Positions 3,719 to 63,001 of a stretch of 64,000 bases of DNA are shown piece by piece. The position numbers and the translations under genes were made by a program. The DNA comes from an uncultured Candidatus Saccharibacteria bacterium. Its GTDB lineage: Bacteria > Patescibacteriota > Minisyncoccia > Phycocordibacterales > Phycocordibacteraceae. The notes below the pieces were generated by a model. It was given only the letters and a program-made list of their open reading frames with translations. It ran no database searches and was not told the origin of the DNA. The stretch covers positions 2,050 through 66,049 of the forward strand of contig CAZUBJ010000001.1 of the NCBI GenBank assembly GCA_964618705.1, given 5' to 3'. Every line of letters begins with the position of its first letter. Positions within the stretch are counted from its first letter, which is position 1.

Positions 3719-3748
3719 AAGGGCCCGGCGCTTCTGCGCCGGGCCCTT
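3719..3748 (-). terminator. Rho-independent terminator (12-bp GC stem AAGGGCCCGGCGC / GCGCCGGGCCCTT, TTCT loop, T-tract on minus strand)
   Basis: The plus strand carries a perfect palindrome preceded by GTAAAGAAAA, which reads as a TTTTCTTTAC tail on the minus strand. Confidence 0.6.
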
Positions 3749-3760
3749 CCCGTTGTGGCT

Positions 3761-3931
3761 CTAGCCGTGGCCGCGTGCGCGCTCGCGCGCCAGGCCAACG
3801 GTGGCGAATTCCTCGATACCGACGAGGGGTGGCTCGTTGGAGCCCGTACCGTCGCTACGGTTAGTGGTCGCGGGTGCAAGCAGAGCGCCAATAACAACGG
3901 GGAAGAACAAATTAACAACGCTAAACGGCAT
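3761..3931 (-). CDS. Small hydrophobic peptide (hypothetical)
   Basis: This 56-aa ORF (MPFSVVNLFFPVVIGALLAPATT...) is GC-rich. A perfect 12-bp hairpin terminator lies directly downstream on the minus strand at 3719-3748. A competing ORF on the plus strand makes the call uncertain. Confidence 0.25.
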   Translation of the reverse strand: MPFSVVNLFFPVVIGALLAPATTNRSDGTGSNEPPLVGIEEFATVGLARERARGHG

Positions 3932-4244
3932 CACTTTTCCTATTACTATCGTTGCGGGAAGTACGAGGATACCATAGTGAAAAAGTTTCGGCGACCTGTG
4001 GGGTGGAGTGACACGGCGATTACGCCTTTTGCCCGCGCGTTGAGAGCTCGTCGTCCACCACAAGGGCATTTCTTATTTACTAACTCGCTGCGCTCCTAAG
4101 AAAATAATGTCACTCGCACTCACGCTGGGCACCGCCTCGCGGTTTTGCTCTACTGAGCAAAACATCGCTCCGGCATTCAAGTCCCGAGCACAACGCGAAG
4201 GCGTTGTGCTCCCCCGGCACAATTTCTCTCTGCGTTCTAAATTG

Positions 4245-4325
4245 TGCCGGGGGAGGGACTTGAACCCTCAAACCTTTCAGTAGTGGGTTTTGAATCCACC
4301 GCGTATACCATTCCGCCACCCCGGC
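4245..4325 (-). tRNA. tRNA-Leu (anticodon CAA), type II with long variable arm, no encoded CCA
   Basis: The reverse complement folds as acceptor GCCGGGG/CCCCGGC, D-arm GCGGAATGGTATACGC, anticodon arm GTGGA-TTCAAAA-CCCAC, a 13-nt variable arm, T-arm GAGGG-TTCAAGT-CCCTC and discriminator A. It is collinear with E. coli tRNA-Leu(CAA). Confidence 0.85.
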
Positions 4326-4387
4326 AATGTTCATAATCCTACTTCTAGATGCACTTCCTCGCAAACGGCTCGTGTTAGAATGCACAC

Positions 4388-5428
4388 ATGAATCCGTTTG
4401 GCGGCGACAAACTCGCATCTACCTACAACGAGCCAACCAAGTACGACTCTGTGTACTGGGTGGAGGTGGACCGCATCCAGCCGAACCCCTATCAACCTCG
4501 CAAGGAGTTTGACGAAGAACGACTTAAGGCTCTCGCAGAAAGTATTCGGCAGTACGGTGTGTTGCAGCCACTGGTAGTAACGCGCACCGAGCGCGAGCTT
4601 CCTGGTGGAGGGTTACAGGCCTCGTATGAACTTATTGCTGGTGAGCGTCGTTTCCGTGCATCAAAACTCATCGGTCTTAAGGAGGTACCCGTTGTTATTC
4701 GTGCGGGGGAACAGACTGACAAGATGAAGCTGGAGCTCGCCATTATTGAGAACCTTCAGCGCGAGGACTTGAACTCTATTGATCGAGCCAAAGCGCTTGC
4801 ACAGCTTGTAGATACCTTCGGGCTTTCTCACGGAGAAGTTGGTGCAAAGGTGGGCCGCAGTCGTGAGTACATCACCAACTCTATTCGCCTCCTCCTCCTT
4901 CCTGAGGAAATCCAGAACGCTGTGGTTGCAAAAGAGATTACTGAAGGACACGCGCGCGCACTCCTCATGCTCCAGGACCGTCCAGAGGAGATGCAGACTC
5001 TGTTTAAGGAGATCATGCTCAAGAAGACGAGCGTGCGCATGGTAGAGCAGATGGCACGCCGCATTGCCACCGACCGTATCCGCAAGCACGACAAAACCAT
5101 GGAGATGATGGAGCTTGAGAAAAGTCTCACAGAAACGCTCGGTACCCGTGTGCTGATTGAGAACCGTCCAAATGGCGGGCGTGTCCTCATTGAGTTTTTC
5201 TCTTCGGAGGACCTCGCAAACATTGCGAACATACTTGCGACGCGCGAGGCACAGCTCTTGGCAGAGAAGGAAGCCCCAGCTGCGAGCGAGAACGACACTG
5301 CCGTGGTGCCGTATCTATTTCCAAACACTACTCCTGTTGTCACTGCGGAACCCACCGCTCAAGTGGTAACTGAGGAAGTTACAGAGCCCGAAGAAGACAT
5401 ATACTCCGTTTCAAGCTTCACCGTTTGA
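4388..5428 (+). CDS. parB: Chromosome partitioning protein ParB/Spo0J, with a C-terminal acidic/Pro-rich extension
   Basis: It has the ParB box (LIAGERRFRA), VVIR, IENLQREDLN and an HTH (SHGEVGAKVGRSREYITNSIRLL). No parA is adjacent within the window. Confidence 0.85.
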   Translation: MNPFGGDKLASTYNEPTKYDSVYWVEVDRIQPNPYQPRKEFDEERLKALAESIRQYGVLQPLVVTRTERELPGGGLQASYELIAGERRFRASKLIGLKEVPVVIRAGEQTDKMKLELAIIENLQREDLNSIDRAKALAQLVDTFGLSHGEVGAKVGRSREYITNSIRLLLLPEEIQNAVVAKEITEGHARALLMLQDRPEEMQTLFKEIMLKKTSVRMVEQMARRIATDRIRKHDKTMEMMELEKSLTETLGTRVLIENRPNGGRVLIEFFSSEDLANIANILATREAQLLAEKEAPAASENDTAVVPYLFPNTTPVVTAEPTAQVVTEEVTEPEEDIYSVSSFTV

Positions 5429-5484
5429 CATTCTACCGCTTTCTTGTACAGTGTTCCTGAACAAGTACAAACGGAGGTAAAACA

Positions 5485-5739
5485 GTGGCCGACGAACGAA
5501 TCCCCGCGATGGCCTGGTTCAGGGATCGCAAGGCATACTACGGAGCAAAGCCGCCTACGAGCCAGGTACGGAGAACCTACGATGTGTTCGAGCGGCTCAT
5601 CATTCTCGTGAGCGACGAGCACCATCTGCTCACCTCCGAGCAGATGGACATTGTGGAGAATACGGTCCTGCACGGACTTAGGTCCGACGCCGACATCTTC
5701 TCAGTCGCCGCCTGGATCAAGACCTGCCCGCGCAGCTGA
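5485..5739 (+). CDS. Hypothetical small protein (84 aa) in a GC-rich islet
   Basis: The ORF runs at about 58% GC against a 50% background. A perfect 12-bp hairpin (5753-5780) follows it immediately. I recognise no family. Confidence 0.35.
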   Translation: MADERIPAMAWFRDRKAYYGAKPPTSQVRRTYDVFERLIILVSDEHHLLTSEQMDIVENTVLHGLRSDADIFSVAAWIKTCPRS

Positions 5740-5752
5740 GCCCGAACGAAAG

Positions 5753-5780
5753 TACCCCAAGCGCGCGAGCGCTTGGGGTA
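5753..5780. terminator. Bidirectional hairpin terminator (TACCCCAAGCGC-GCGA-GCGCTTGGGGTA) between the small ORF and rel
   Basis: A perfect 12-bp inverted repeat lies between the two convergent genes. Confidence 0.5.
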
Positions 5781-5789
5781 TCGTCATAT

Positions 5790-7412
5790 CTATTCCTTCG
5801 CTTTCTTGGGATTTTTCTTCTTCGTAATACGAAGGGGCTTAATCTCCGGGATCGTCGATTCAGGCCGTGCGTGCGTATCCAGATAGCTTCGAATATGACG
5901 TCGAGCAATACTTGTGCGCGCGTAGTCGTGCCATTTTGCCGTTGGGCGAGCGTTCTTACTTTTAATGATTTCTATAATGTCGCCGTTCTTAAGTTCGGTA
6001 TCAAACGAAACCAGCTTCCCATTTATTTTTGCACCCTGCATATGCTCTCCCAGGTCGCTATGAATTGCGAAGGCAAAGTCCACGGGGGTCGAACCGGTGG
6101 GAAGGTCAATCACGTCACCACGAGGTGAGAAGACAAAAATGCGATGCGAAAAGAAGTCAGTCTTAAGTCCTTCTACAAATTCGCTCGACTCCGCAACCTT
6201 TGCGTGCGCATCAGCAAGTTCGGTGAGCCATCCAGGTGTCGGAGCCACCTTTCCGTTCGCAGACGCCGCCTCGTGTGTTGGACGTTTAATATTCATGAGA
6301 TTTGGGAGAAGGTCGCGAATCCAAGGAATGGAGAGCTTCTGCACAGAACCCTGTTTAGCATTTCGTCCAAGTGCCTTATAGGAACCATGAGAAGCAATAC
6401 CAAACTCTGCCTGCTCGTGCATTTCGTTGGTACGAATCTGAATCTCTACAATACCTGCCTCAGGTGTTACGAGCGTGGTGTGAAGTGACTGGTACCCGCT
6501 TGAAGGTTTTGGTACGGCTATATAGTCCTTAAACTCTCCAGGAAGCGGCTTCCATAATGAGTGAAGTACTCCAAGTGCGGTGTAGGCATCCGGTACGGTG
6601 GGCACAATGATACGAAGTGCCGCAATGTCGTGAATTTTTGTGATGTCGTCCCCCTTACGCTTTAGTTTTTGATGCAGGCTCCATAGGCCTTTCATGCGGA
6701 TGCCCGTCTTAAAGTCACGCATGCCTTTACGCGCAAGCGCATGACGCACTTCCTTCTGAACTTTCACAAGGCCCGCCTCTGTTTCTTTTGCAGCTAGCTT
6801 TCGTACTTCAATGGCATGATGGTACGCATCCTCGTCAATAAACGGGAACGCCATGTCCTCAAAGTCCTTTCGAATGCGTCCCATGCCAAGACGATCGGCA
6901 AGTGGGGCATAAATCTCGAGTGTTTCGAGCGCTATACGTCTGCGCTTCTCCACAGGAACATGCTCAAGCGTGGTCATGTTGTGGTAGCGGTCCGCTAATT
7001 TAACAATAAGCACGCGCACATCAGCCGCGGTCGCTACTAGAAGGCGTCTCAAACTCTCTGCGTGGCGCTCTGTGCCCTGATACTTGTGCTGGCCGAGCTT
7101 GGTAACACCTTGCACTAAAAACAGCACCTCAGGGCCAAATTCAGCCGACACTTCTTCGTCAGTGACTTGCGTGTCTTCGATAGCGTCGTGCAGGAGTGCT
7201 GCGGCAACGGTCGGTGCGTCGAGTCCCAACTCAGCCAGGTGCTTAGCAACTGCGCTCGGATGTATAAAATAGGGCTCGCCCGAATAACGAGTGTGTCCCT
7301 CGTGCGCCTTCTTTGCAAAATCGTATGCTTTTTCTACGAGCGCTTTATCGAGAGCGCTCAGGTTAGTCATTTGGGCCAGTATTTCCTTGACCGTCGTCAT
7401 GGTCTTTAGCAT
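5790..7412 (-). CDS. rel: Bifunctional (p)ppGpp synthetase/hydrolase Rel (RelA/SpoT homolog, short 540-aa form)
   Basis: The HD hydrolase motifs (HLAELGLDAPTVAAALLHDAIEDT) and the synthetase domain (RIKDFEDMAFP..., YQSLHTTL) are present, followed by a TGS-like region. Confidence 0.85.
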   Translation of the reverse strand: MLKTMTTVKEILAQMTNLSALDKALVEKAYDFAKKAHEGHTRYSGEPYFIHPSAVAKHLAELGLDAPTVAAALLHDAIEDTQVTDEEVSAEFGPEVLFLVQGVTKLGQHKYQGTERHAESLRRLLVATAADVRVLIVKLADRYHNMTTLEHVPVEKRRRIALETLEIYAPLADRLGMGRIRKDFEDMAFPFIDEDAYHHAIEVRKLAAKETEAGLVKVQKEVRHALARKGMRDFKTGIRMKGLWSLHQKLKRKGDDITKIHDIAALRIIVPTVPDAYTALGVLHSLWKPLPGEFKDYIAVPKPSSGYQSLHTTLVTPEAGIVEIQIRTNEMHEQAEFGIASHGSYKALGRNAKQGSVQKLSIPWIRDLLPNLMNIKRPTHEAASANGKVAPTPGWLTELADAHAKVAESSEFVEGLKTDFFSHRIFVFSPRGDVIDLPTGSTPVDFAFAIHSDLGEHMQGAKINGKLVSFDTELKNGDIIEIIKSKNARPTAKWHDYARTSIARRHIRSYLDTHARPESTIPEIKPLRITKKKNPKKAKE

Positions 7413-7807
7413 ACTGCTCTAATCCGTTTGCGACAAACGGTAACCAGTTTACTGCGTACGCAGTTGTAAAAAATGTAAGCAAATTGCGAGGAGAGTTCTT
7501 TTGAGACCGTTACTGAGTAAGGCTCCATCGCACTGCGGAAAGTGTGGTGGTGTGCACCGTGCCATTCACGGCAAGCGCGTGAATGCGCAGGGAGTTCGAC
7601 TGCTGTGCGAGGAACCCGACACTATCGAGTTTGAGATCGACACCCCGTCATCGCCCTACGTAACGCCGCTTCCTGCCACGGTTGCGGCCTAAGCGAAGAG
7701 CCCGCACCCTATCGGGGCGGGCTCATGCTATGTGTGCCGTTGACTGCGACCAAAACCGCGCTATAGTCCAATTGTTCCACTCGTTTTAACGCAAGGAGAC
7801 TCGAGCC

Positions 7808-7975
7808 ATGCAGTACTGCACTGATTGCGGACAAATGGTGCTGGTGCCTTGCAAGAGCAAGGACCATCCCGAGATTGAGCGTGTGTTTTGCCCCAAACGG
7901 CGAACCATGATTTCCTTCGAACCGGTCATTCCGTCGAAGGTGCTCGCGTTCAATCGCGCCCTGCAAGCGGCCTAG
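7808..7975 (+). CDS. Small zinc-ribbon protein (55 aa, C-x2-C ... C ... C). It is under 60 aa, so it does not appear in the ORF track.
   Basis: It starts at ATG 7808 with an AAGGAG SD 9 nt upstream. The translation is MQYCTDCGQMVLVPCKSKDHPEIERVFCPKRR..., with four Cys. A hairpin terminator follows at 8015-8042. Confidence 0.35.
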   Translation: MQYCTDCGQMVLVPCKSKDHPEIERVFCPKRRTMISFEPVIPSKVLAFNRALQAA

Positions 7976-8014
7976 CCGCCTGCGCCCATCGGCCCTTCGT
8001 GGGCCCACAACAAG

Positions 8015-8042
8015 CCGCCGCGATTCGAAAGAGTCGCGGCGG
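8015..8042. terminator. Hairpin terminator (CCGCCGCGA-N10-TCGCGGCGG) 10 nt downstream of the topA stop. It also closes the small plus-strand ORF.
   Basis: The inverted repeat is 9 bp and is followed on the plus strand by TATCTACTTTTAT. Confidence 0.5.
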
Positions 8043-8051
8043 TATCTACTT

Positions 8052-10515: not shown

Positions 10516-11376
10516 TTACACTCTGCACCAAGCACCAAATTCTTCTTTGAGTATGCCGCGGATTTCTAGCATGACGAGTGCGGTGAGTACTTCTCCGGCA
10601 GGCAGTCCCGAGTCGCGGATAATCTCGTCGCGTGCTCTTGGTTGTGCAAGCAGTTCGTAGAGCACCAGCTCCTGGGGAGTGAGGTCTCTAAGCGGCACCT
10701 GGCGTGACTCGGCCTTCTGGGAAATGCCGAGCGCTTCCAGAATATGTGCTGGCTCTGCAACAAGGGCCGCACCAAGACGAATGAAGAGGTTGGCAGCGTA
10801 GCCACCTCGGTCCCCAATGCGGTACGGCACGCATAGTAAGTCGCGATTGTATTCGCCCGAGAGCCGCGCTGTGATGAGTGTGCCCGAGCGTTCTGCCGCT
10901 TCAACGACAAGTACGGCGCGGGCAATACCCACCATGAGCCGGTTACGAGCAGGGAACATCCATGGCGCCGCTTGGGTCTCTGGAGGATACTCACTTATGA
11001 GTGCGCCTCCTGAATCTAGAATATTTGCGGCAAGTCCAGTGTTAGTTCTCGGCGCGATTGCTCGGTCATCTATGCCAGAGCCTGGAAAGGCGATGGTGTG
11101 AAGTCCTGCTGAAAGTGCGGCCCGGTGCGCGCACGCGTCAGCACCAAGTGCGAGTCCTGAGACAATGCACACTGGATAGCCAGCAAGTCCAGCAATCAAA
11201 CGCTCAGTTGCTTCTCGCCCATACGAAGAGAGGTCGCGAGAGCCAACAACGGTAAGGTATACCGTTCCCGCGGGTGGGAGGCTGCCTCGTATAAAAAGTG
11301 AGGGTGGGACATCAGGTATTTCCCGAAGCCCTTCGGGGTAGTCCGCAGGAGAGAGTTGTCGCATTTGGGTCTCCAT
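10516..11376 (-). CDS. dprA: DNA processing protein DprA (Smf)
   Basis: The Rossmann-like core SGLALGADACAHRAAL, VLGSG... and a C-terminal wHTH-like domain are present. It lies immediately upstream of topA, which is the conserved smf-topA arrangement. Confidence 0.8.
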   Translation of the reverse strand: METQMRQLSPADYPEGLREIPDVPPSLFIRGSLPPAGTVYLTVVGSRDLSSYGREATERLIAGLAGYPVCIVSGLALGADACAHRAALSAGLHTIAFPGSGIDDRAIAPRTNTGLAANILDSGGALISEYPPETQAAPWMFPARNRLMVGIARAVLVVEAAERSGTLITARLSGEYNRDLLCVPYRIGDRGGYAANLFIRLGAALVAEPAHILEALGISQKAESRQVPLRDLTPQELVLYELLAQPRARDEIIRDSGLPAGEVLTALVMLEIRGILKEEFGAWCRV

Positions 11377-17111: not shown

Positions 17112-17417
17112 ATGAAGAAGAAAGGTGTAGTCCACAGCTTGCCTCTCGATTTGCGCAAGGCGATAAATGCCTCCCCGAAGGCAGCATCATCGTGGAAGGA
17201 CATTACGTCACTCGCGCGAAACGAGTGGATTTGTTGGGTAACGTCAGGAAAGAAGGCAGAGACGCGCGGAATTCGGATTGAGAAGACAATTTCAAAACTG
17301 AGTGGGGCATGCGTCGCCCATGCTGTTTTGCTGGCTGCTCTCACAGATAAAAAGAAGCCGCCCGGAGCGAGGCGGAGGATGCTCCGGGCGCTTCAGGCGG
17401 CTATGTTCGCGGGATGA
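17112..17417 (+). CDS. YdeI/OmpD-associated (OmdA) family protein
   Basis: KAINASPKAASSWKDITSLARNEWICWV matches the YdeI/OmdA family. The 3' end overlaps the terminator hairpin of the convergent minus-strand gene. Confidence 0.4.
   Translation: MKKKGVVHSLPLDLRKAINASPKAASSWKDITSLARNEWICWVTSGKKAETRGIRIEKTISKLSGACVAHAVLLAALTDKKKPPGARRRMLRALQAAMFAG
17360..17389 (-). terminator. Rho-independent terminator for gene 17401-17940 (GCCCGGAGC-N12-GCTCCGGGC followed by a TTTTTAT tail on the minus strand)
   Basis: A 9-bp inverted repeat is preceded on the plus strand by the ATAAAAAGAAG A-tract. Confidence 0.5.
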
Positions 17418-17940
17418 CGTGGTACAGCGCGACGTGGGCCTCGCCAAGAATCAACGAATCGGCGCCGTAGGTAGTCAGCATCAGTCTGCCGGGGAGGAAG
17501 TCGAACTCCAGATGAGGAAAAAACTCCATCAGCTCCTCCCGTGCCTGTGCCAGTGCTCTGGCGTTCCGATAGTGTTTGTCGCAGTGGCCCTGCAAGTCGA
17601 TGACGAAGGTCGGCTTCTGTTTCCGGTAGGAAACAGAAATCAGGGCGTGGGCTGTGCGTGGATTGTGCTCCGCGAGGGCTTCCGGTGAAGGGAACTTGAC
17701 GCGACAGACCTGGCACGTCAGCTCGTAGGCCCGCGCCTCGCGAAGTTCAGCCTCGCACTTCTTGCAGCGCTGGTCCAGCGGAACTTCAACGAAGGCGGAA
17801 TCAACAAGGATGTCATGCAGATTCACGTCCTTCGCCCCGCAGGCAGCCTGTTTGGCATTGCCTTGAGTAAGGTCGCGCAGGTGAATCTTATCCTGCAAGA
17901 CGGCAATGTTTCTGGTTCCAGTGTGTTCGGCTTGAGTCAC
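17401..17940 (-). CDS. Hypothetical protein with a C4 zinc-ribbon (CKKCE...CQVCR), in a GC-rich islet
   Basis: The ORF is 179 aa at about 59% GC. A terminator hairpin (17360-17389) with a T-tract follows it on the minus strand. Confidence 0.45.
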   Translation of the reverse strand: MTQAEHTGTRNIAVLQDKIHLRDLTQGNAKQAACGAKDVNLHDILVDSAFVEVPLDQRCKKCEAELREARAYELTCQVCRVKFPSPEALAEHNPRTAHALISVSYRKQKPTFVIDLQGHCDKHYRNARALAQAREELMEFFPHLEFDFLPGRLMLTTYGADSLILGEAHVALYHVIPRT

Positions 17941-18080
17941 GATGTGTCTCCTCGTTTCTGGTGACTATGGGAATGTACAGCTCATTCAGTGCTGTTATAC
18001 CACAGTACTACAGTTTTGTCACCCTCTCCTTGCGAGGTGCTAGAGAAGGTGCCCATGTAATAGGAAGTTCATGCAGAAAA

Positions 18081-18112
18081 CCCACCGGGGCGGGTAGTCC
18101 GCAGCCGGTGGG
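18081..18112 (-). terminator. Hairpin terminator (CCCACCGG-N16-CCGGTGGG) with a T-tract on the minus strand
   Basis: An 8-bp inverted repeat is preceded on the plus strand by GCAGAAAA. Confidence 0.45.
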
Positions 18113-18123
18113 CTGATTCAGTT

Positions 18124-18348
18124 TCAGTCAACGAGGTCGGGCAGGCCGAGCTCTTTGAAGAGAACGAGAGTATCGGGCTCGTAATAGAGCGGGTAGGCCT
18201 TGACCTCATGGCCATTGACCATGACCATCTTCGGGGCATCCAGCACCACTTCAGCTCCTGCGCGCAGTCTCACCGTAGTGGGCAACAGCCCACATCCTGG
18301 GAACTGCTCGTAGGTTGGTACTGCCTGTGGCAGAGTAACCGTGTGCAT
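18124..18348 (-). CDS. Small hypothetical protein (74 aa, possibly a beta-grasp-like fold)
   Basis: It starts at ATG 18348 with a strong GGGAGG SD 8 nt upstream. A terminator hairpin at 18081-18112 follows it, and the ORF is GC-rich. Confidence 0.45.
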   Translation of the reverse strand: MHTVTLPQAVPTYEQFPGCGLLPTTVRLRAGAEVVLDAPKMVMVNGHEVKAYPLYYEPDTLVLFKELGLPDLVD

Positions 18349-25210: not shown

Positions 25211-25321
25211 GGTGGACAGAGGTGTATTTGTAGACAGATAGTGGTTCCGGCGTATACTCCACGTCGGACCTGTATAGTTCTCCATTGGTCCAATGTTTCA
25301 ACCCCTAACAGGGAGGCTTCC

Positions 25322-25963
25322 ATGACCAGTGGTTATGGACACATAGTGCGCCCCCTGAAAAAAGGGGCAAATCGTGCATCTCTGATTCCGTGCGTATGGA
25401 ATCCGCGTGGCGTAAATGCGGCTCTGTGTAGCGACATAAGCAGTCGGCCTGGCCGGAACGAAGGGTGCTGTAGAGAAGCGTGTACGTCACCAAACCGTGT
25501 GTGCCGAGTATGCATGCATGAAGGAGGTGTGCCCGGCACGGTGGTGGACTTTGTGCTCGGAGTCTGTGAAAGGCATAAGGGCTCCGATTCGAATCCTCAC
25601 CATAACCTGTTGAGCGCGAGCGCTGCAGCTCTCGATCTCGCTTCGTCTAAAATCCTTCGACAGCGTCTCGAGAGAAAGGCTCGTACGCTCAAAGAGGACC
25701 TGCGCGTCCTAGACCCGGTTCTTTATGAGCCCGAGCACTACAAAGATAGGATTGCAACTCTGCCAAAGCGACAGCTAATGGTTCTCGCCTATCTGTCCCA
25801 TGGACTTTCAGACGAGGAAGTGGCTGAACGGTTTCTGTGGAGACCCTGGCGAGTAACGCTGATCATGAAGGAGATTTATCAACACTTTTCTTTGGAGCAA
25901 ATTCCATCCCGTTCGCGACGGGGCGTGCTCGTGGAAATCGCGAAGCTCTGGGCTCGTTCGTAA
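25322..25963 (+). CDS. LuxR/GerE-family HTH transcriptional regulator (C-terminal HTH; Cys-rich N-terminal region)
   Basis: The C-terminal LPKRQLMVLAYLSHGLSDEEVAERF is a LuxR-type HTH. I chose the start at ATG 25322 with a GGGAGG SD 5 nt upstream; the track ORF starts at 25151. Confidence 0.55.
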   Translation: MTSGYGHIVRPLKKGANRASLIPCVWNPRGVNAALCSDISSRPGRNEGCCREACTSPNRVCRVCMHEGGVPGTVVDFVLGVCERHKGSDSNPHHNLLSASAAALDLASSKILRQRLERKARTLKEDLRVLDPVLYEPEHYKDRIATLPKRQLMVLAYLSHGLSDEEVAERFLWRPWRVTLIMKEIYQHFSLEQIPSRSRRGVLVEIAKLWARS

Positions 25964-25977: not shown

Positions 25978-26000
25978 GGGCCGGCGCAGCGCGCCGGCCC
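25978..26000. terminator. Bidirectional hairpin terminator (GGGCCGGCGC-AGC-GCGCCGGCCC) between luxR and rsuA
   Basis: A perfect 10-bp stem carries an A-tract before it and a T-rich tail after it. Confidence 0.55.
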
Positions 26001-35031: not shown

Positions 35032-35042
35032 TTATTTAGCGT

Positions 35043-38303: not shown

Positions 38304-38312
38304 TATTCGACC

Positions 38313-38621
38313 ATGACTGACACCACAAAATTCCAACGACTTATAGAAGCGCTCGAGCTCGACGAGCTTGCTCCTGGAGAAGAGCAGGATGAATTGCTCA
38401 CCGACTTAAACGCAGCAATCTTCAAAAGCTCGCTCGTGCGTATGATTGAGAGTATGGACGAGAAGACGCGTGAGGAGTTCGCAACGCTCATGGAGAATGA
38501 GGCGAGCGAGGAGGAGCTTGAAAAGTTTCTGGCAGAGAAAGTTCCTGGCGCTGAGAAGGCAATTGAGGAGGCGGTCGCTTCTATTGCTGATGATATACTT
38601 GCCGTGTCAGACACCGATTAA
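38313..38621 (+). CDS. Small acidic helical protein (102 aa, pI very low)
   Basis: It starts 9 nt after the giant gene. It is rich in E/D/L and has no Trp, so it lacks a WXG motif. Confidence 0.45.
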   Translation: MTDTTKFQRLIEALELDELAPGEEQDELLTDLNAAIFKSSLVRMIESMDEKTREEFATLMENEASEEELEKFLAEKVPGAEKAIEEAVASIADDILAVSDTD

Positions 38622-39178: not shown

Positions 39179-39201
39179 TAGAGAGTCGCATATAAAAAGA
39201 A

Positions 39202-39234
39202 ATCGCGCGTGTGGCCGGGGGCCGCACGCGCGAT
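39202..39234 (+). terminator. Rho-independent terminator after FKBP (ATCGCGCGTG-N13-CACGCGCGAT plus a GTTCTGTTCT tail)
   Basis: A 10-bp inverted repeat is preceded by AAAAAGAA and followed by a T-rich run. Confidence 0.5.
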
Positions 39235-39265
39235 GTTCTGTTCTAGACCCAGAAGGTCAGAACAG

Positions 39266-39904: not shown

Positions 39905-40091
39905 TCCGCGCGAGATCAAGGTATTCATCGAAGGTCTCCCTGTTGCGATGATTGGTTGATGCCCGTTCCAACGATATTCTGTGTGGAAAGAGCGTACTCC
40001 TATAGTATATACAAGTTAGACACTCTTGTCAAGTTGACTAGACGCCCGAAAATACTTGCTAAATGGGCGGTTCCCGCCTAGTCTCCTATAT

Positions 40092-48545: not shown

Positions 48546-49049
48546 CTAGTCCGCGTTGCGGACAGCGACGATGACCCAGCAGATGAGGGCCAGAATGCCG
48601 CTCACCGACGCCCACCAGAAGAACAGGCCGTTGAAGGGGAAGACGCTGATGCCGTCCGGGGCGGTCAGGCTGTCGCCCGACTCCCCGTTATCGAGCAGGG
48701 TCTCCCGCAGCTTCATCAGCACATTGCTCTTCTCGAGCTGGCTGGCGTCCGGCTTTACGGACTTCAGCTCCTCCAGGGAGGCGCTGACGTTCTCGTACCA
48801 GAAGCCGACGTCGTTCTTGGGGCTGGGCCACAGGGCGCCGGTGTTGCCGGAGGTCATGGAGTTGGACTCCATGTAGGCGACGGCGACTTTCAGGTTCTGC
48901 TCGGCCAGTTCGATGGTGTTCGAGTTGGCGGCACGTTCCAGGTAGTTGCCGCAGCGCAGGTCGAACATGACCTTGCTGTAGGTAGCGCACCCGCCCCAGA
49001 CCAGAAAGACGATCGAGGACAGGATGGCGACGAGAGTCGAAGCACGCAT
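48546..49049 (-). CDS. Hypothetical membrane protein (N- and C-terminal hydrophobic segments) in a GC-rich islet
   Basis: The ORF is 167 aa at about 61% GC. Confidence 0.4.
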   Translation of the reverse strand: MRASTLVAILSSIVFLVWGGCATYSKVMFDLRCGNYLERAANSNTIELAEQNLKVAVAYMESNSMTSGNTGALWPSPKNDVGFWYENVSASLEELKSVKPDASQLEKSNVLMKLRETLLDNGESGDSLTAPDGISVFPFNGLFFWWASVSGILALICWVIVAVRNAD

Positions 49050-49202
49050 AAGATTTTAACCGGTTTCCCGGCTCCCTCACGAAATCGGTCGGTCCGATTC
49101 CTCTGCACATACTATAGAGTACTTATTGGTATTTGTCAAACATTGCTACCTAGATGGTACAGTTAAGTTTTAGAGAGTCACCCATTTACGAAAGGATGCG
49201 GG

Positions 49203-49487
49203 ATGACCCACGTTGCTCTTGATTGCCTGCAAATTGTCGGCCAGTTCAGCGAAGAGGATATCTTCACCACCGTCAGGAAGCACCTCTCCCAGTTTCCTGA
49301 CTTCCGTCCCGACTTCTCCGATGAAGACTTGTTCGCGTTCGCGTACGCCAAGGGACATGCTGTCTCTATGAATGCGCAGATGACGCGGGCTCGGACGAAC
49401 GGGGACTACGGACGCTGGACGAACGACAAGGTGCTGCCGTGTTATATGGGCAGCTGGTTCAACGAGGCGCGCAGATGCGCCGAGTAA
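49203..49487 (+). CDS. Hypothetical small protein (94 aa) in a GC-rich islet
   Basis: A hairpin follows at 49499-49520 (CGGGTCCGC-TTTT-GCGGACCCG). Confidence 0.35.
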   Translation: MTHVALDCLQIVGQFSEEDIFTTVRKHLSQFPDFRPDFSDEDLFAFAYAKGHAVSMNAQMTRARTNGDYGRWTNDKVLPCYMGSWFNEARRCAE

Positions 49488-49628
49488 GACCAGGGCTACG
49501 GGTCCGCTTTTGCGGACCCGGCTCATTTCTTGACCAGGCAAGTCAAAAGGCCCATACTCCCGCCAGTTGAGATCACACCCGTGACCACTGCGTTCTTTGT
49601 GGTTGCCATCAATTGGAAGGAGATAGGT

Positions 49629-50213
49629 ATGTTAGACCGACCCACACGCCCTCCGACAATGAGGGCTCTCGCCAAACAGGCGACCCGCGCCAAGGTTCTC
49701 GCCGCCGCCCGCGAGACGATCACCAATTGCGGGTACGAGGATACGACTATTCGCGACATCGCGAAGCTGGCCGGCATGTCGACCGGCGCCGTGTTCTCCA
49801 GTTTCGACAGCAAGGAAGAGCTGTTGATCGCCGTGCTTGAAGCGGAGCACGAGGAAGAAAAAGCGTTCATGAAGGACGTTGCGTTTTCCAACAACGACCC
49901 GGTGCAACGCATCGGGTCCATGCTCGCGGCCAACTACAGCTTCTGGCAGCAAAAGCTGAATCTGCTCAGCTGCAGGCTCAGTCTCGCGAGGAGCAATGAT
50001 GCCTTCGGAGAGTTCACCGACAAGGTCGACTGCGCTCTCACCAACGCCATTTGCGCCGTTCTTCTGGAGCACGGCGTCGTGGAGGCGGAACTGAAGGCTC
50101 AGGTGCTGCTGGCCGTGCACCTGCGCAACCTGCAGGTCCAAACCGGCTTCCCTTGGCACGTTGATCCGAAGATGCCCATCGGCCAGTCCGTAAACCTCGT
50201 TCTCCAGTCGTAG
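49629..50213 (+). CDS. TetR/AcrR family transcriptional regulator
   Basis: The N-terminal HTH is TTIRDIAKLAGMSTGAVFSSF. I chose the start at ATG 49629 with a GGAAGGAGA SD 5 nt upstream. Confidence 0.7.
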   Translation: MLDRPTRPPTMRALAKQATRAKVLAAARETITNCGYEDTTIRDIAKLAGMSTGAVFSSFDSKEELLIAVLEAEHEEEKAFMKDVAFSNNDPVQRIGSMLAANYSFWQQKLNLLSCRLSLARSNDAFGEFTDKVDCALTNAICAVLLEHGVVEAELKAQVLLAVHLRNLQVQTGFPWHVDPKMPIGQSVNLVLQS

Positions 50214-50303
50214 GTGACCGGCTTGAGACAATGGAGGAAACCCCGCGCTAGCGAGAGCTAGCGCGGGGAATTCATTTACAAACAGCTGTGAATAGAACGA
50301 CTT

Positions 50304-50330
50304 CCGGGTCCGCACAGAGTGCGGACCCGG
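50304..50330. terminator. Hairpin (CCGGGTCCGCAC-AGA-GTGCGGACCCGG) sharing its core with the hairpin at 49499-49520
   Basis: A 12-bp stem lies downstream of both the TetR gene (plus) and the 50340-50742 gene (minus). Confidence 0.5.
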
Positions 50331-54239: not shown

Positions 54240-54559
54240 ATGTCTTTCTCGTGCTGCTGCTTCATCCTTGTCAACTCAGAGGCCCTTGCAATTCCGACCT
54301 AACTTGCGAGAATTGAAGAAGAACGACTGACCTTGAGATTTCTCCCGAGGCCAGACGTTCGCAGGTCTTTGCGCTCCAAATGTCAGTCGACTTTCGGCAC
54401 CGGTGCCGAGCGTGCTCGGCAGTCTGACGATGCGCCCAAATGCGACTAAACAGAACTACGAGCTTGTCCATGTGGACAATTCTCCTTGGTCGGCAGCCTC
54501 CCCTTAGGTTGGTACCCTCGGAGACTTAGTCTCCGGTTGGTGGGGTTGCTGATTAGGAT

Positions 54560-54593
54560 GGGCCTCCGCTTTCGAGCGGGGGCCCAGTTTTTT
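54560..54593 (+). terminator. Strong rho-independent terminator (GGGCCTCCGCT-TTCG-AGCGGGGGCCC plus AGTTTTTTG)
   Basis: An 11-bp stem is followed by a T6 tract. There is no confident CDS upstream between 54240 and 54560. Confidence 0.6.
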
Positions 54594-54982
54594 GTGCCGC
54601 CCGATTCGAAAAGGAGGGGTGGTGGACTGCAGCTGGCCTCACTGTCTTTCACTTAGGCGTTCCACGCTTCTCACGCTCCTCTCGGATGGCGATGCGCAGC
54701 AAGACTCGTACAAATTCATACAGTCGTTCGCGCGCCTCGACACGCTCAACAAGTGTGGCGTCAGGCATGTATTTGTAGATGAGGTGGGCTCCTGGTGGGC
54801 AAATGCACTTTGGTGTTGTTGTCATACCGCCGCAGTATGCAGAATTGCCTACCAGGCCGCTAGTCGGTCATCAGTGTCTTCATACTTCAGACTCTGTTCT
54901 ATCGAGGACAAAAGGGACTTCATGTCTGGACTTTGGGGAGGTCGAACCTGGGCCCGAGCTGGTCCACAAACGACATTTGAAA

Positions 54983-55007
54983 GCCCCGAAAGGGGCTTTT
55001 GTCGTTT
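54983..55007 (+). terminator. Hairpin terminator (GCCCCGAAAGGGGC plus TTTTGTCGTTT) nested inside a longer palindrome (AAACGACA...TGTCGTTT)
   Basis: A perfect GNRA-type hairpin (GAAA loop) with a T-tract sits in a non-coding stretch. Confidence 0.5.
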
Positions 55008-55160
55008 GCGGGCCGTAGCAGAGTGTCTGCACACTCTGCGGCAGGATTCGAAAGTGGTTGAGTATGTCGCAACGAGTTCGAAGCTTTGTGAGAACGACGT
55101 GAGACACGAGACCCACACCGTTCCTGTAAGGAAAGGATCCTGTACGGTCGAAATTCAAAA

Positions 55161-55185
55161 AGGCCCGGACATTCATCCGGGCCTT
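55161..55185 (-). terminator. Rho-independent terminator for the ECF sigma gene (AGGCCCGGA-N7-TCCGGGCCT plus a TTTTTGAATTT tail on the minus strand)
   Basis: A 9-bp stem lies 19 nt downstream of the sigma stop on the minus strand. Confidence 0.6.
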
Positions 55186-55203
55186 GCGCATGTGCGCGAG
55201 TGA

Positions 55204-55683
55204 TTATTGCGTCGCCGCTATGAGCTGTTCGCGTCCGAGTCGGAAGTAGCCCTTCACGGTGCCGTGCGGTCGCTTCAGAATTGCCGCAATTTCCGAGTCC
55301 GAGAACCCGATGCTTCCGAGCAGAATCGCCTTTCGGCGATCAGACTGCATGTTCGCCACGTACGCGAGCACTTCTGTGAGCTCTACCTGCACTTCCTGGA
55401 CCGCTTCGGTGCGGTCGCTGTTCAAGCGCAGTCGGGAGAGCATCCGCCCCTCCGTCCTTTCCTTGCGGATGGAGTCAATGAACAAGCGCTTCATAATCAC
55501 CTGTGCCCAGGGCAAGAGCTCTCGGGTAGGGTCGTATGCGCTCCGTTGATCGAGCAGTTTGGCGACGGTGGTCTGCACCAGGTCTTCTGCGCGTTCACGG
55601 TGGCGGGTCAGCTTCTTCGCGTAGTTGCGCAGTGCGCTATAGGTCGCCAGTATCCGGCGACCATACTCAACTTCGTTTTGCAT
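55204..55683 (-). CDS. ECF (sigma-70 family) RNA polymerase sigma factor
   Basis: Region 2 is DLVQTTVAKLL...WAQVIMKRLFIDSIRKE and region 4 is the HTH SDSEIAAILKRPHGTVKGYFRLGREQL. I chose the start at ATG 55683 with an AGGAGG SD 5 nt upstream. Confidence 0.75.
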   Translation of the reverse strand: MQNEVEYGRRILATYSALRNYAKKLTRHRERAEDLVQTTVAKLLDQRSAYDPTRELLPWAQVIMKRLFIDSIRKERTEGRMLSRLRLNSDRTEAVQEVQVELTEVLAYVANMQSDRRKAILLGSIGFSDSEIAAILKRPHGTVKGYFRLGREQLIAATQ

Positions 55684-55770
55684 GGTTGCCTCCTTCTGGC
55701 TATCCACAACCTACAGCACATATTCTGGAGACGCCAGAGCCCCACTGTGCGCAGTGCTACTATTACCCCA

Positions 55771-57357
55771 ATGCTTCGGCGCATCATTGCCACTATAGAG
55801 TCCTCATCACTCACCCTGTATTCATTCATGGGTGCAGTGGCGGGAGTCGTCTTTCTCCGTTTCTTCCTAGAATCCTTTAGCGCCCGCACCCCTACGGGTT
55901 TTGTCGCAAGCGACGCGCCCACACTCGTTCACTACGGACTCTTCTTCCTGGCAGCGCTCCTATTGCATACACTCATCGTTGCGTTTGTGACGCGCGAGAA
56001 GATGCTCACTGTGCTCAAAATCAGCACGTACGCACTCCCGCTCATCCTGATTGCTCCGATCATCGACATATTCATGGGTGGGGGAACGATGGCGTATTTG
56101 ATACAGCCACTGCCAGAGCTGATTGCAGACTTCCTCACATTCTTTGGTCCACTACAGGGCTCAGGTGCTACGGTGGGTATTCGTATTGAGCTTGCCATAG
56201 TGCTTGCGGGTCTTGGAACTTATATATGGCTCAAGACTGCCAGTGTGTGGCGTACCGCGCTTGGCGTGTTTCTCTCCTATGTGGTGGTGTTTGGCATGGG
56301 CGCATGGCCAAGCCTGGTAGCCATTGCCACTGGCGGCACCGCGCATGTGATGTTCCTGGCAAGTGACTTGAGCAGCTCACTCATTGCACGCTCGTTCCTA
56401 CACCCAAGCGAGGTGTACAGCGGATTCCGTCTTCTTGAGATGTACTTCAGTGCCTACATGGCGCAGAGCATGTTCCTCCTCTCGCTTATCTGTGGCTACT
56501 TTGTACTGCGCTCTATTTCTCCACGCGTGGTGAAAGCAGTGAAGGCGAACATGCGCCCGCTACGTCTACTAAACTATATGGCGCTGGCGACACTGGGCTT
56601 TTTGCTTGCGCTCTACTTCGCTCCTATCACCTGGTCTGTCTACGACGTCATTACGGTGCTTGTCGCGTTTTCCTGTATCAAGCTTCTGTGGGTCTTTGCG
56701 GTCACCGCAAACGATTTGGGAGACGAAGATATCGACCGTATTTCAAATGCTTCCCGCCCTCTTATTACGGGTGCGATGAGTCGAACCGAAATGATCCAGG
56801 TCGCCGTAGGAGCTCTTATATTGGTGATTTTGGGAGGTCTCTCGCTTGGGTCCTATTCGCTGTTCTATCTCCTTATATATGTAGCCATCGTTGTGGTGTA
56901 CTCGTTCCCGCCACTGCGCCTGCGCCGATTCCCTGTGGTGTCGCACATGCTCATTGGCTTTGCGTGCCTGTGCATGGTCCTCATGGGATTCTTTCTCGCT
57001 TCACCCGCGCGCGAACTTGCGGCATTCCCACCATACGCTGCGCTTCTCGTTGTCATTATTTTTACGCTTGGACTTAACTTGAAAGATTTGAAGGACGAAG
57101 CGGGAGACCGAGCCGCAGGTGTGGTCACCATAGCGACGCTACTTGGTGCGAAGCGCGCACAGTATGTGATTGCTGCATTACTGTTTGTGGCAGCATTGCT
57201 TGTGCCATTTATGCTGCAGGAGCCGTCACTTTGGATTCCGTGCATTGTAAGCGGCGCCATTGTTGCCGCTGGAGTAGCGAAAGGGAAGCGGGAAAAGTTT
57301 GTTTTTGTAATCTATTTCTTATTTGTGCTGTACCTGATATTCAGACTGGTGGCATAG
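55771..57357 (+). CDS. Polytopic membrane protein: N-terminal ~240-aa multi-TM domain fused to a C-terminal UbiA-family prenyltransferase-like domain
   Basis: The C-terminal half carries UbiA Asp-rich motifs NDLGDEDIDRI (NDxxDxxxD) and KDLKDEAGDRAAG (DxxDxxxD). It has more than 12 TM helices. The track ORF start (55207) overlaps the sigma gene on the opposite strand, so I chose ATG 55771. Confidence 0.55.
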   Translation: MLRRIIATIESSSLTLYSFMGAVAGVVFLRFFLESFSARTPTGFVASDAPTLVHYGLFFLAALLLHTLIVAFVTREKMLTVLKISTYALPLILIAPIIDIFMGGGTMAYLIQPLPELIADFLTFFGPLQGSGATVGIRIELAIVLAGLGTYIWLKTASVWRTALGVFLSYVVVFGMGAWPSLVAIATGGTAHVMFLASDLSSSLIARSFLHPSEVYSGFRLLEMYFSAYMAQSMFLLSLICGYFVLRSISPRVVKAVKANMRPLRLLNYMALATLGFLLALYFAPITWSVYDVITVLVAFSCIKLLWVFAVTANDLGDEDIDRISNASRPLITGAMSRTEMIQVAVGALILVILGGLSLGSYSLFYLLIYVAIVVVYSFPPLRLRRFPVVSHMLIGFACLCMVLMGFFLASPARELAAFPPYAALLVVIIFTLGLNLKDLKDEAGDRAAGVVTIATLLGAKRAQYVIAALLFVAALLVPFMLQEPSLWIPCIVSGAIVAAGVAKGKREKFVFVIYFLFVLYLIFRLVA

Positions 57358-61587: not shown

Positions 61588-61633
61588 TTACCTGCATGTT
61601 AGTAGTAGCAAAGCGCCCGCGAAAGCGGGCGCT

Positions 61634-62134
61634 TTGTGCGTGCTACCATTTATGTATATGACCACATTGCGTACCGTAGGTATCTTTCTCATCTGTATCG
61701 CAGCGTCGCTTCTAGCGGGCTTCTGGGGCTCTACAGGCACCGTAGGAAGCATTGCTGGCTGGTACTCCATAATCAACAAACCGTTCTGGACGCCACCGAA
61801 CTGGGTGTTCATGCCGGTATGGACACTGCTCTTTATCCTTATGGGCACAGCAGCTGCGCTGGTGTGGAAGAGTGGAAAGAAGGATGCGTGGAAGCCGGTG
61901 CTATTCTTCTTCGCTCACCTAGTGGTGAACACGTACTGGTCTATCGTATTCTTTACGAACCAGGACCCGGTCACGGCACTCTACGTCATTGCTGTTCTGT
62001 GGCTCATGATTGTCGGCATGATGGTGTGGTTCTGGCGCTACTCACGCGTCGCCACGTACTTGCTCGTGCCGTACATTCTGTGGGTGAGCTACGCCACCAC
62101 GCTTAACATCGGCATTGTCCTTCTAAATCAATAA
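61634..62134 (+). CDS. tspO: TspO/MBR family tryptophan-rich sensory protein
   Basis: It has five TM helices and is Trp-rich (GWYSIINKPFWTPPNWVFMPVWTLLFILMG). Its size is typical of the family. Confidence 0.75.
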   Translation: MCVLPFMYMTTLRTVGIFLICIAASLLAGFWGSTGTVGSIAGWYSIINKPFWTPPNWVFMPVWTLLFILMGTAAALVWKSGKKDAWKPVLFFFAHLVVNTYWSIVFFTNQDPVTALYVIAVLWLMIVGMMVWFWRYSRVATYLLVPYILWVSYATTLNIGIVLLNQ

Positions 62135-62136
62135 TT

Positions 62137-62541
62137 ATGCGCTACGTACAACTCTTTGCTCTGACTCTTCCTATTGCCCTCGTTCTTGATGTTATCTGGA
62201 TTGTAGGAATCGCTATGCCGTTCTACCGTGCAGAGCTTGGTGGGCTACTCGCAACTGACGTGGTGTGGCCGGCTGCTATTGCGTTCTATGTGTTCTACAT
62301 AATCGCGCTCATTGTGTTTGTGCTAAAGCCAGCAATCATTGCGCACTCATTGAAGAAGGCCGTACTTCTCGGGGCTTTTCTTGGCTTCACGGCGTACATG
62401 ACGTACGACCTCACCAACCTCGCTACCACTGAGGGCTGGTCGCTCGCGGTTGCGTTGGTGGATATGCTCTGGGGCACCGTCTTTACCGCGGTGCTAGCTG
62501 CTATCTCGTACACCTTCGCTACAAAGTGGTTGAAGATGTAG
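62137..62541 (+). CDS. DUF2177 family small membrane protein
   Basis: It is 134 aa with four TM helices and the YMTYDLTNLAT motif. It lies 2 nt after tspO. Confidence 0.5.
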   Translation: MRYVQLFALTLPIALVLDVIWIVGIAMPFYRAELGGLLATDVVWPAAIAFYVFYIIALIVFVLKPAIIAHSLKKAVLLGAFLGFTAYMTYDLTNLATTEGWSLAVALVDMLWGTVFTAVLAAISYTFATKWLKM

Positions 62542-62566
62542 GAAGTTTGTTCGTCTGGGTATAGAA

Positions 62567-62593
62567 AAACGGGCGGCCAAGGGCCGCCCGTTT
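62567..62593. terminator. Bidirectional terminator (AAACGGGCGGCC-AAG-GGCCGCCCGTTT)
   Basis: A perfect 12-bp stem lies between DUF2177 (plus) and the small basic-protein gene (minus). On the minus strand its tail is TTTTTCTATAC. Confidence 0.6.
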
Positions 62594-62616
62594 CACTCGA
62601 GCTAGTCCACCGTCCA

Positions 62617-62931
62617 TTAGAGGGCGGAGCGCCGTCCGTAGGTTTCGGGATCCCAGGTGATCCGTCCGCCAGTCAGACTCGTCTCGCGCGAAGCTGGGGG
62701 AGCGGCGACGCGCGCAGGGCGGACCTTGGGGCCGCGCATGGCATCGACCTGCCGGAACAGACGCTGACGCAGTTCGTCGACAGTGATGCCGCCGTCACTT
62801 GCCCGTGACTGAAACTCGGCGGTGCGACGGCTCTTGTTCAGCCGCTTGCGAATGCTGGCCTTCTTCTGGCCGGGATGCGTCCGCGAGATTCGAGTGGCGG
62901 GCTTTTTGGGCAGAGTGCGCTGAGCAAACAT
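62617..62931 (-). CDS. Small highly basic protein (104 aa, Arg/Lys-rich) in a GC-rich islet
   Basis: The ORF runs at about 63% GC. A strong terminator lies directly downstream on the minus strand. I recognise no family. Confidence 0.35.
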   Translation of the reverse strand: MFAQRTLPKKPATRISRTHPGQKKASIRKRLNKSRRTAEFQSRASDGGITVDELRQRLFRQVDAMRGPKVRPARVAAPPASRETSLTGGRITWDPETYGRRSAL

Positions 62932-63001
62932 GAAAGATCGTCTCCTTGGTGTTCAGAAGTGAACAGGAGTGATAATGGTTCAAAGAGAGATAATTGGCAA
63001 G

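Follow-up and report, generated by a model that had tools for sequence, protein, structure and literature searches.

Housekeeping genes in a 64,000-nucleotide (nt) chromosomal stretch of an uncultured Candidatus Saccharibacteria bacterium (contig CAZUBJ010000001.1, positions 2,050 to 66,049; the whole stretch is called the window below) are interrupted by short segments of high G+C content (GC), each holding one or two small genes closed by a strong hairpin. What are these islets, and where do they come from? An initial annotation, made from the sequence alone, listed six of them (here A to F) and proposed repeated small-scale gene acquisition, either from a high-GC host or by way of a family of mobile cassettes. 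Our comparative analysis makes it fairly probable that the islets are autonomous accessory transcription units at operon boundaries, with a layout like that of phage morons, and that a gene pool within the Saccharibacteria is a likelier source for them than Actinobacteria.

GC-rich islets in a Saccharibacteria chromosome

The window is a stretch of Saccharibacteria (TM7) chromosome. The closest relatives of its RelA/SpoT-like protein (5790-7412, minus strand) were found in five Saccharibacteria metagenome-assembled genomes (85-95% identity), and gene order was kept over about 20 kb between the window and these relA-matched relatives. Related species were compared at the relA region (L001 to L005), and other relatives were used per locus (L037, L038, L046, L065 and L127). 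A Pfam scan covered about 50 open reading frames (ORFs) of the window, including every gene flanking an islet, with about nine larger ORFs outside the scan. The larger genes had ordinary housekeeping and envelope functions, namely miaA, peroxiredoxin, parB, relA, topA, dprA (10516-11376), serS, dus, dnaX and lexA, followed by dinB, uvrA/B/C, tgt, ddl and a DUF87 ATPase cluster. An Rfam scan of the window returned three tRNAs and nothing else.

The GC of the whole window is 53.0%, not the background of about 50% that had been given. Measured against it, the six islets are real: their GC of 57.5-65.5% is at or above the 96th percentile among windows of the same length.

Islet A, 3719-4069: GC 60.1%, 97.1 percentile
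Islet B, 5485-5780: GC 60.8%, 97.6 percentile
Islet C, 7808-8042: GC 60.4%, 96.0 percentile
Islet D, 17360-18348: GC 57.5%, 97.5 percentile
Islet E, 39202-39960: GC 63.6%, 100 percentile
Islet F, 62567-62931: GC 65.5%, 100 percentile

The initial annotation was also right that each islet holds one or two small genes, each of which has a ribosome-binding site, the best frame and a terminator. All genes that it listed were present, but it overlooked C0, which lies beside C. The eight genes are given below, with GC at third codon positions (GC3) where it is not discussed later (aa, amino acids).

Gene A, 3761-3931, minus strand: 56-aa hydrophobic peptide MPFSVVNLFFPVVIGALLAPA...ERARGHG, GC3 0.68
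Gene B, 5485-5739, plus strand: 84 aa, no known family, GGAGG ribosome-binding site, GC3 0.79
Gene C0, 7501-7692, plus strand: 63-aa Cys/His-rich protein, divergent from relA, GC3 0.62
Gene C, 7808-7975, plus strand: 55-aa Cys-rich protein (CxxCG...C...C), AAGGAG ribosome-binding site, GC3 0.71
Gene D1, 17401-17940, minus strand: 179-aa predicted zinc-binding protein of a rare family
Gene D2, 18124-18348, minus strand: 74 aa, start at 18348, GGGAGG ribosome-binding site
Gene E, 39266-39928, minus strand: 220-aa lipoprotein with a conserved LLAAC lipobox
Gene F, 62617-62931, minus strand: 104-aa basic protein rich in Arg, Ala and Pro, AAGGAG ribosome-binding site

Searches of Pfam, PHROGs, PADLOC and NCBIfam gave nothing significant for the small islet proteins; there were no PHROG matches, and the islets are flanked by housekeeping genes, not by prophage.

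The GC excess is a property of codon usage

The GC excess of the islets resides in codon usage, at third positions and mostly in C-ending codons. GC3 was 0.62-0.84 in the eight islet genes and 0.544 ± 0.055 in 51 others (Mann-Whitney p = 8.6e-9); GC at codon positions 1 and 2 was barely above that of the 51 others (p = 0.03). The frequency of C at third positions (C3) was 0.33-0.56 in B, C, D1, D2, E and F versus 0.25-0.30 in other genes, and it reached 0.39 in A and only 0.29 in C0. Islet codons were shifted mainly to the C-ending GCC, GGC, ACC, GTC, ATC, TTC and TAC, plus CTG.

GC-rich terminators, which had been named as a possible cause of the pattern, were indeed general in the window, but removal of the hairpins cut islet GC by only 0.4-1.7 points. 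Two further causes were ruled out. Plus-strand genes such as B and a TetR-family gene described below were also enriched, and an excess of C3 on both strands is not explained by replication strand skew. Intergenic DNA without the hairpins had a GC of 49.8%, which shows that the islet genes are not drifting toward a GC-rich neutral composition.

Islet genes carry their own transcription and translation signals

A GGAG-type ribosome-binding site precedes every islet gene, and in every case the proposed frame had the best codon score among the six frames. Sigma-70-like sites matching at least 10 of 12 consensus positions were found seven times in the window. Four were located directly upstream of B, C, E and G1, the last a gene in the uvrA-uvrC gap; of the others, one lies before another accessory gene, one before lexA and one is intragenic. 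The islet upstream regions make up an estimated 1% or so of strand positions, and the clustering of the best promoter matches there is far beyond chance.

Promoter of B, 5425-5452, plus strand: TTGACA-16-TACAGT, 10/12 consensus, joint best match in the first 20 kb
Promoter of C, 7740-7767, plus strand: TTGACT-16-TATAGT, 10/12 consensus
Promoter of E, 40004-40032, minus strand: TTGACA-17-TATACT, 11/12 consensus, joint best match in 39-58 kb
Gene G1, 48546-49049, minus strand: GC3 0.92, of the islet compositional class, promoter at 49111-49139 (11/12)

D1 is preceded by a promoter-like site (GTGACA-17-TATAAC) with an extended -10, and F by a weak one (9/12 consensus positions). At the other end of the units, hairpins were called at a folding free energy (dG) of -23 kcal/mol or lower in a 44-nt segment. 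Twenty-seven passed this threshold in the window, 20 of them intergenic; eight of these stand behind islet genes and the other 12 close other units, among them uvrA, the TetR-family gene, a gene for a 1383-aa surface protein, tRNA-Leu and several convergent pairs. The islet hairpins (n = 8) had a dG of -25 to -33 kcal/mol (44 nt), were located 3-65 nt past the stop codon and were followed by a T-run on the strand of their own gene.

Terminator of A, 3719-3748, minus strand: 13-bp perfect stem and T-run, dG -31 kcal/mol, kept in four relatives with compensatory changes
Terminator of B, 5753-5780, plus strand: 12-bp perfect stem, between convergent B and relA
Terminator of C0, 7692-7729, plus strand: dG -26.6 kcal/mol, kept in L001 and L004
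Terminator of C, 8014-8043, plus strand: 13 pairs, dG -27 kcal/mol, then a T-run
Terminator of D1, 17354-17394, minus strand: dG -27.7 kcal/mol, then TTCTTTTT on the minus strand
Terminator of D2, 18074-18115, minus strand: dG -25.6 kcal/mol, kept in L065
Terminator of E, 39198-39239, minus strand: dG -33 kcal/mol, kept in L037 and L127 with compensatory changes
Terminator of F, 62567-62593, minus strand: 12-bp perfect stem

Perfect hairpins of 8-12 bp had been described. Each gene does have a strong GC hairpin, but the stems are 8-15 bp long; most are perfect, with exceptions at 8014, 39202, 17354 and 18074 that show imperfect pairing or large loops. The orthologous hairpins behind A, B, C0, D2 and E retain their pairing via compensatory substitutions, and their T-runs are kept. 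By these features, the islet hairpins appear to be ordinary intrinsic terminators and not the signature of a mobile element. Some are located between convergent genes, where their palindromic sequence may allow termination in both directions; that of E could in the same way also stop the FKBP operon. The clustered promoters, together with the ribosome-binding sites and terminators, indicate that the islet genes are self-contained transcription units.

These signals also bear on another explanation, according to which the pattern is a compositional by-product, with weakly constrained or spurious short ORFs in sequence that is GC-rich for other reasons. Gene F, which is GC-rich at all codon positions, rich in Arg, Ala and Pro and unconserved, would fit such an origin; the codon scores of the small ORFs were near zero, not clearly positive; and GC-rich DNA readily gives long ORFs, as in the case of a 290-aa ORF antisense to E, which we rejected as a by-product of the high GC3 of E. 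However, conservation at the protein level, with invariant Cys/His residues or a lipobox, was seen in the orthologs of A, C0, D2, E and D1. No unit lacks a ribosome-binding site or a terminator, and promoter-like sites precede B, C, D1, E and (weakly) F, with the strongest matches clustered before islet genes. The excess of GC is third-position-specific in the proposed frame, and the hairpins contribute at most 1.7 points. The initial annotation had cautioned that the small ORFs might lack coding signal, conservation and ribosome-binding sites, whereas we found such sites throughout, best-scoring frames and orthologs of several of the genes. An origin of the pattern as a by-product of composition is thus very unlikely.

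Variable units are gained or replaced as complete blocks

Comparisons with related species show that the islet genes fall into two classes, variable (B, C, D1 and F) and position-conserved but fast-evolving (A, C0, D2 and E). The repeated small-scale acquisition that had been proposed is therefore borne out in part: the D1, C and B blocks vary between species and F is an ORFan, but A, C0, D2 and E are old syntenic genes of the genus.

D1 cassette, 17338-18072, minus strand: terminator, gene and promoter as a single block

The alignment between the window and L065, a close relative whose rhodanese gene is 90% identical, stops at 17337 and resumes at 18073, with 735 nt replacing 37 nt of L065. 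Unit C is likewise an extra complete block, of about 314 nt, between the topA stop codon and the C0 terminator, and it is absent from all five related species; the topA-relA gap measures 639 nt in the window versus 283-325 nt in these species, where a single small Cys-rich gene with its terminator occupies it. Between parB and relA, the window, L001 and L003 have 362-398 nt, with one ORF of 83-96 aa and a conserved hairpin in each; L002, L004 and L005 have an empty gap of 14-41 nt that lacks the hairpin. The ORFs at this site barely align with each other (E-value of 0.002 for L001 versus L003), and window gene B matches neither. D1 and C are exact promoter-ORF-terminator insertions, and B was gained or replaced as a block too. 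No target-site duplication was seen at the D1, C or B junctions.

The D1 protein belongs to a rare family, for which 28 clusters were found in 1.84 billion representatives; its members share invariant Cys and His residues. Family scans gave only sub-threshold C2H2-like matches; the predicted structure is a confident model, for which no structural relative was found, and no D1 relative was found on viral contigs. The D1 relatives whose context was read lie on three contigs (L124, L125 and L126) encoding two distinct proteins, and all three are Saccharibacteria-like. L126 (a Logan contig of SRR22387759) carries, besides the D1 homologue, four syntenic genes 57-61% identical to those at 26.0-28.5 kb of the window (rluA, two small genes and an ECF (extracytoplasmic function) sigma factor gene). 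L124 has a gene in common with other Saccharibacteria-like loci, and L125 encodes the same D1-family protein beside the same helicase gene as L124.

Two further differences from relatives were seen. In the OmdA/YdeI-like ORF (17112-17417), whose frame runs into the D1 cassette and includes the D1 terminator, the last 35 or so residues (17307-17417) are not conserved in relatives; the D1 insertion seems to have replaced its original 3' end. Where the window has 13 nt between a membrane gene and the rhodanese gene, L065 has a 1.1-kb insert (2885-4016) of two genes, one 2H-phosphoesterase-like (GC3 0.44) and one nucleoside deoxyribosyltransferase-like (GC3 0.78) with a GC hairpin, which indicates that a like turnover operates in relatives too.

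Gene F is a strict ORFan, as no homologue other than its own sequence was found among 5.8 billion proteins. It was called as a gene on two contigs of an identical strain, 100% identical to the window. Its product has low sequence complexity, and each of the gene's three codon positions is GC-rich (0.65, 0.59 and 0.72).

Turnover was also seen in the uvrA-uvrC gap, a hotspot that in the window (48546-50330) contains G1, a 94-aa gene (s94, 49203-49487) and the TetR-family gene. In L038 (985-1733) the same gap contains an s94 homologue together with an unrelated gene for a 112-aa membrane protein (GC3 0.77). Library scans gave no family match for G1.

TetR-family regulator, 49629-50213, plus strand: Pfam TetR_N E = 3e-14, GC3 0.77, of the islet compositional class, terminator 50236-50273

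The gain and loss of units as discrete blocks that include the hairpin would also be expected if the islets were a family of mobile cassettes, integron-like or resembling miniature inverted-repeat transposable elements (MITEs), with the GC palindromes as recombination or recognition sites, as the initial annotation had considered. Two hairpins outside the listed islets (49499-49520 and 50304-50330), which bracket the TetR-family gene and its own terminator, have an identical 9-bp stem, CGGGTCCGC, and were the only pair standing out, at a borderline P = 0.07; copies of a tRNA-Leu 3' end repeat in relatives resemble attachment sites. Yet no boundary sequence common to the units, target-site duplication or direct-repeat family covering the hairpins was found in the window. 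The resemblance noted earlier among the hairpins was not beyond chance for GC-rich palindromes: compared with composition-preserving shuffles, the longest word shared by hairpin arms was 9 nt versus a mean of 7.4 (P = 0.07), and the pairs of arms sharing at least 6 nt and at least 5 nt gave P = 0.33 and P = 0.02, respectively. The T-runs on the gene's strand and the compensatory substitutions are those of terminators, and hairpins of the same strength also stand behind uvrA, the gene for the 1383-aa surface protein and further units. The islet units are scattered over both strands and bring promoters of their own. Among the roughly 50 ORFs covered by the Pfam scan, which include all islet flanks and leave out about nine larger ones, there was no integrase or transposase match. 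A mobile cassette family is, on this evidence, highly improbable.

Position-conserved units evolve fast but stay in place

Genes A, C0, D2 and E occupy the same site in every relative sampled there (for A, four of five species), and evolve several times faster than the neighboring genes. Gene A has syntenic homologues in L001 to L004, with 52-67% amino acid identity versus 84-97% for the adjacent peroxiredoxin. A 102-aa version of the gene was rejected, since it is not conserved and relatives have stops upstream of the Met of the short ORF.

Block upstream of gene A, 3932-3990, minus strand: about 55 nt, …GGTCGCCGAAACTTTTTCACTATGGTATCCTCGTACTTCCCGCAACGATAGTAA, nearly invariant in five species

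This block is better conserved than the coding sequence of A itself, which suggests a promoter, a leader or a regulatory RNA. The product of A is a predicted small membrane peptide, and such a peptide behind a conserved leader recalls type I toxins. In the neighborhood of A, between tRNA-Leu and the gene, L003 and L004 contain direct repeats of the tRNA-Leu 3' end, TCCCTCCCCC(A/G)GCACA…TTT, resembling the footprints that integrated elements leave at attachment sites. An inverted copy of this repeat is present in the window at 4203-4253 and forms the hairpin 4211-4253; in L001, the stretch from tRNA-Leu to gene A is longer by about 600 nt.

C0 is 62% identical to the L001 gene, and GC3 is 0.62 and 0.68 in the two orthologs. 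A small ORF of CxxC(G) type occupies this site in all relatives, with only CxxC(G)...C/H...C retained in the more distant species. The D2 ortholog in L065 is 84% identical; GC3 values of 0.67 (window) and 0.71 (L065) exceed the 0.45-0.57 of the neighbors.

Lipoprotein E has only three homologues among 5.8 billion proteins (93, 64 and 54% identity), all of them syntenic and in Saccharibacteria (two full intervals and one 1.6-kb contig). Where the full interval was read, E is located between the FKBP and tgt genes, which are 84-97% identical, and its pairwise identities rank in the same order as those of these neighbors. The exact sequence of E is not on record according to an exact look-up, and its structure prediction was unusable (predicted local distance difference test, pLDDT, 49). 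Just upstream of FKBP and E lies a conserved cluster of three genes (32290-38621), coding for a DUF87/DUF8128 ATPase (913 aa), a 1086-aa protein without Pfam match, with an Ala/Pro-rich repeat at about 37070-37200, and a DUF5663 protein; this cluster may be a secretion-system-like module.

Origin of the units and of their codon usage

The C/G-ending usage of the islets resembles that of high-GC Actinobacteria and other high-GC Gram-positive bacteria: C-ending codons are preferred in four-fold boxes, CTG, ATC, TTC and TAC are favored, and GC3 goes up to 0.84-0.92. This likeness could mean that the islet genes were transferred horizontally from a high-GC host or neighbor, host DNA having been taken up and its foreign codons not yet erased, which was the source suggested by the initial annotation. 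B, C, D1 and F vary by species, and the neighboring uvrA-uvrC insert has a TetR gene with a GC3 of 0.77. Natural competence has been reported for Saccharibacteria, and cultivated members grow on Actinobacteria (PMC10633639).

The searches nevertheless gave no support to an actinobacterial donor. No homologue outside Saccharibacteria was found for E or F among the 5.8 billion proteins, and there was no actinobacterial homologue among the context-read relatives of D1, although word-seeded searches of this kind can miss proteins below about 40% identity. The TetR matches, at 33% identity or less, were spread over several phyla (a mixture of Streptomyces and Proteobacteria). A donor pool of broadly matching codon usage exists within the phylum: L126, the Saccharibacteria-like contig with a D1 homologue, has 60% GC, and its genome-wide GC3 (0.68-0.88) and C3 (0.34-0.48) are both close to those of the islet genes, with some synonymous-codon preferences, e.g., for Leu, Ala, Val and Thr, that differ.

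The conserved units, which are syntenic and apparently vertical, argue in the same direction. GC3 of E is 0.84, 0.86, 0.87 and 0.87 across four species. Identity at fourfold sites is 0.37-0.53 for the neighbors of E and 0.47-0.54 for E, versus a random expectation of about 0.40 for the composition of E; by a rough amelioration estimate, a neutral import would have dropped to a GC3 of about 0.75 or lower over that depth. High GC3 persists in the orthologs of D2, C0, A and s94 (0.75 and 0.65 for s94) as in E. Such values despite saturated synonymous sites argue against a fading recent transfer, and the evidence as a whole argues against theft from a host for the conserved units. We consider transfer from Actinobacteria improbable as the origin of the islets.

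In the explanation that we prefer, autonomous units drawn from within the Saccharibacteria, new units would enter by recombination after DNA uptake in a naturally competent lineage; a dprA gene is present in the window. The likeliest source of the units would be a pool of accessory genes within the Saccharibacteria, to which lineages with about 60% GC and broadly matching codon usage belong. In long-resident units, the C/G-ending codons would be held by a gene-specific force rather than being a decaying signature of import. This force could be selection on the translation or the mRNA of strongly promoted monocistronic genes, and the near-consensus promoters make expression-linked codon selection possible. 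That fast-evolving small genes (E, D2, s94 and others) are kept by selection at a C/G-ending usage unlike the rest of the genome is a more specific proposal, which we regard as unlikely, if worth stating: it would point to a separately tuned expression program, e.g., for surface or host-interaction factors, and not to foreign origin.

Several observations weigh against the explanation we prefer. In E, third-position changes between the window and its closest relative number 14 from GC to AT versus 5 from AT to GC, a count whose first number is inflated by saturated GC-rich outgroups, and which at face value suggests slow decay. Peroxiredoxin and FKBP, typical abundant housekeeping genes, have no C3 bias, which leaves simple expression-linked codon selection unproven. 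The variable LuxR-like unit (below) has a GC3 of only 0.54, so that accessory status and GC3 richness are not one thing and a rule that accessory genes are GC3-rich is not general; several positional counterparts in relatives also have ordinary GC3 (range 0.53-0.78). Gene F is backed by gene signals only and not by conservation. None of the variable units could be traced to a donor sequence, and the pool within the Saccharibacteria is deduced from D1 and composition alone. Finally, the units are known here as DNA, and their expression is predicted.

The islet proteins are predicted small membrane, lipoprotein, zinc-binding or basic proteins, for which cell-surface or regulatory roles tied to episymbiosis are plausible.

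Accessory loci outside the islets

LuxR-like gene, 25322-25963: 213 aa, promoter 25231-25258, perfect 10-bp all-G+C hairpin 25978-26000

L046 lacks this gene and has lexA directly beside rluA. Farther along the window, about 960 nt (54240-55200) contain no credible ORF but three strong hairpins (54559-54586, 54967-55008 and 55160-55197); Rfam gave no match there, even at E = 1, and the region may hold novel small RNAs or the remains of a decayed cassette. Next to it, an ORF at 55204-55707 (minus strand), judged by eye, reads like an ECF-type sigma factor. It is overlapped by a long ORF at 55207-57357 (plus strand), whose assigned start is probably wrong, given that the UbiA domain is reached only at residue 468.

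Significance

Saccharibacteria are host-dependent bacteria with tiny genomes, in which most lineage-specific genes lack an explanation; the window gives a view of the layout and turnover of such genes. Here they appear as self-contained units slotted in at operon boundaries, some of them exchanged between species, and the islet units are candidate surface or host-interaction factors. The absence of support for the theft idea in this window matters wherever host-derived transfer in episymbionts is called from GC deviation. The organization itself is ordinary. What deserves further attention is that orphan genes of an episymbiont keep their third-position bias: C/G-rich third positions maintained across orthologs are uncommon for orphan genes and could mark a distinct expression class. 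A literature search found no earlier description of GC3-rich orphan units in Saccharibacteria.

Comparison with known systems

The islet hairpins share the properties of intrinsic terminators, with GC stems of 8-15 bp, short loops, a T-run, a position past stop codons and compensatory changes. Integron cassettes also consist of a small ORF followed by a palindrome and occur as discrete blocks that are present or absent. The islets, however, come with promoters of their own, occur in both orientations and are scattered instead of forming arrays; no attC core or integrase was found, and their palindromes behave as terminators. With genomic islets and ORFans they share shortness, restriction to a lineage, fast evolution, a position at operon boundaries and variation between species. 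ORFans and recent acquisitions are usually more AT-rich than their own genome, whereas the islet genes are richer in third-position G+C and keep this bias in their orthologs.

The layout matches that of the morons of phages, which were reportedly described by Hendrix and Juhala as autonomous promoter-gene-terminator units between conserved genes of lambdoid phages. D1, C and B are each a single small gene with its own predicted promoter and factor-independent terminator, between genes that are adjacent in relatives, and the base composition of the islets likewise departs from that of the surroundings. Unlike morons, the islet units are chromosomal and lie amid housekeeping genes, and several of them are old and syntenic; the likeness is one of layout, not of membership.

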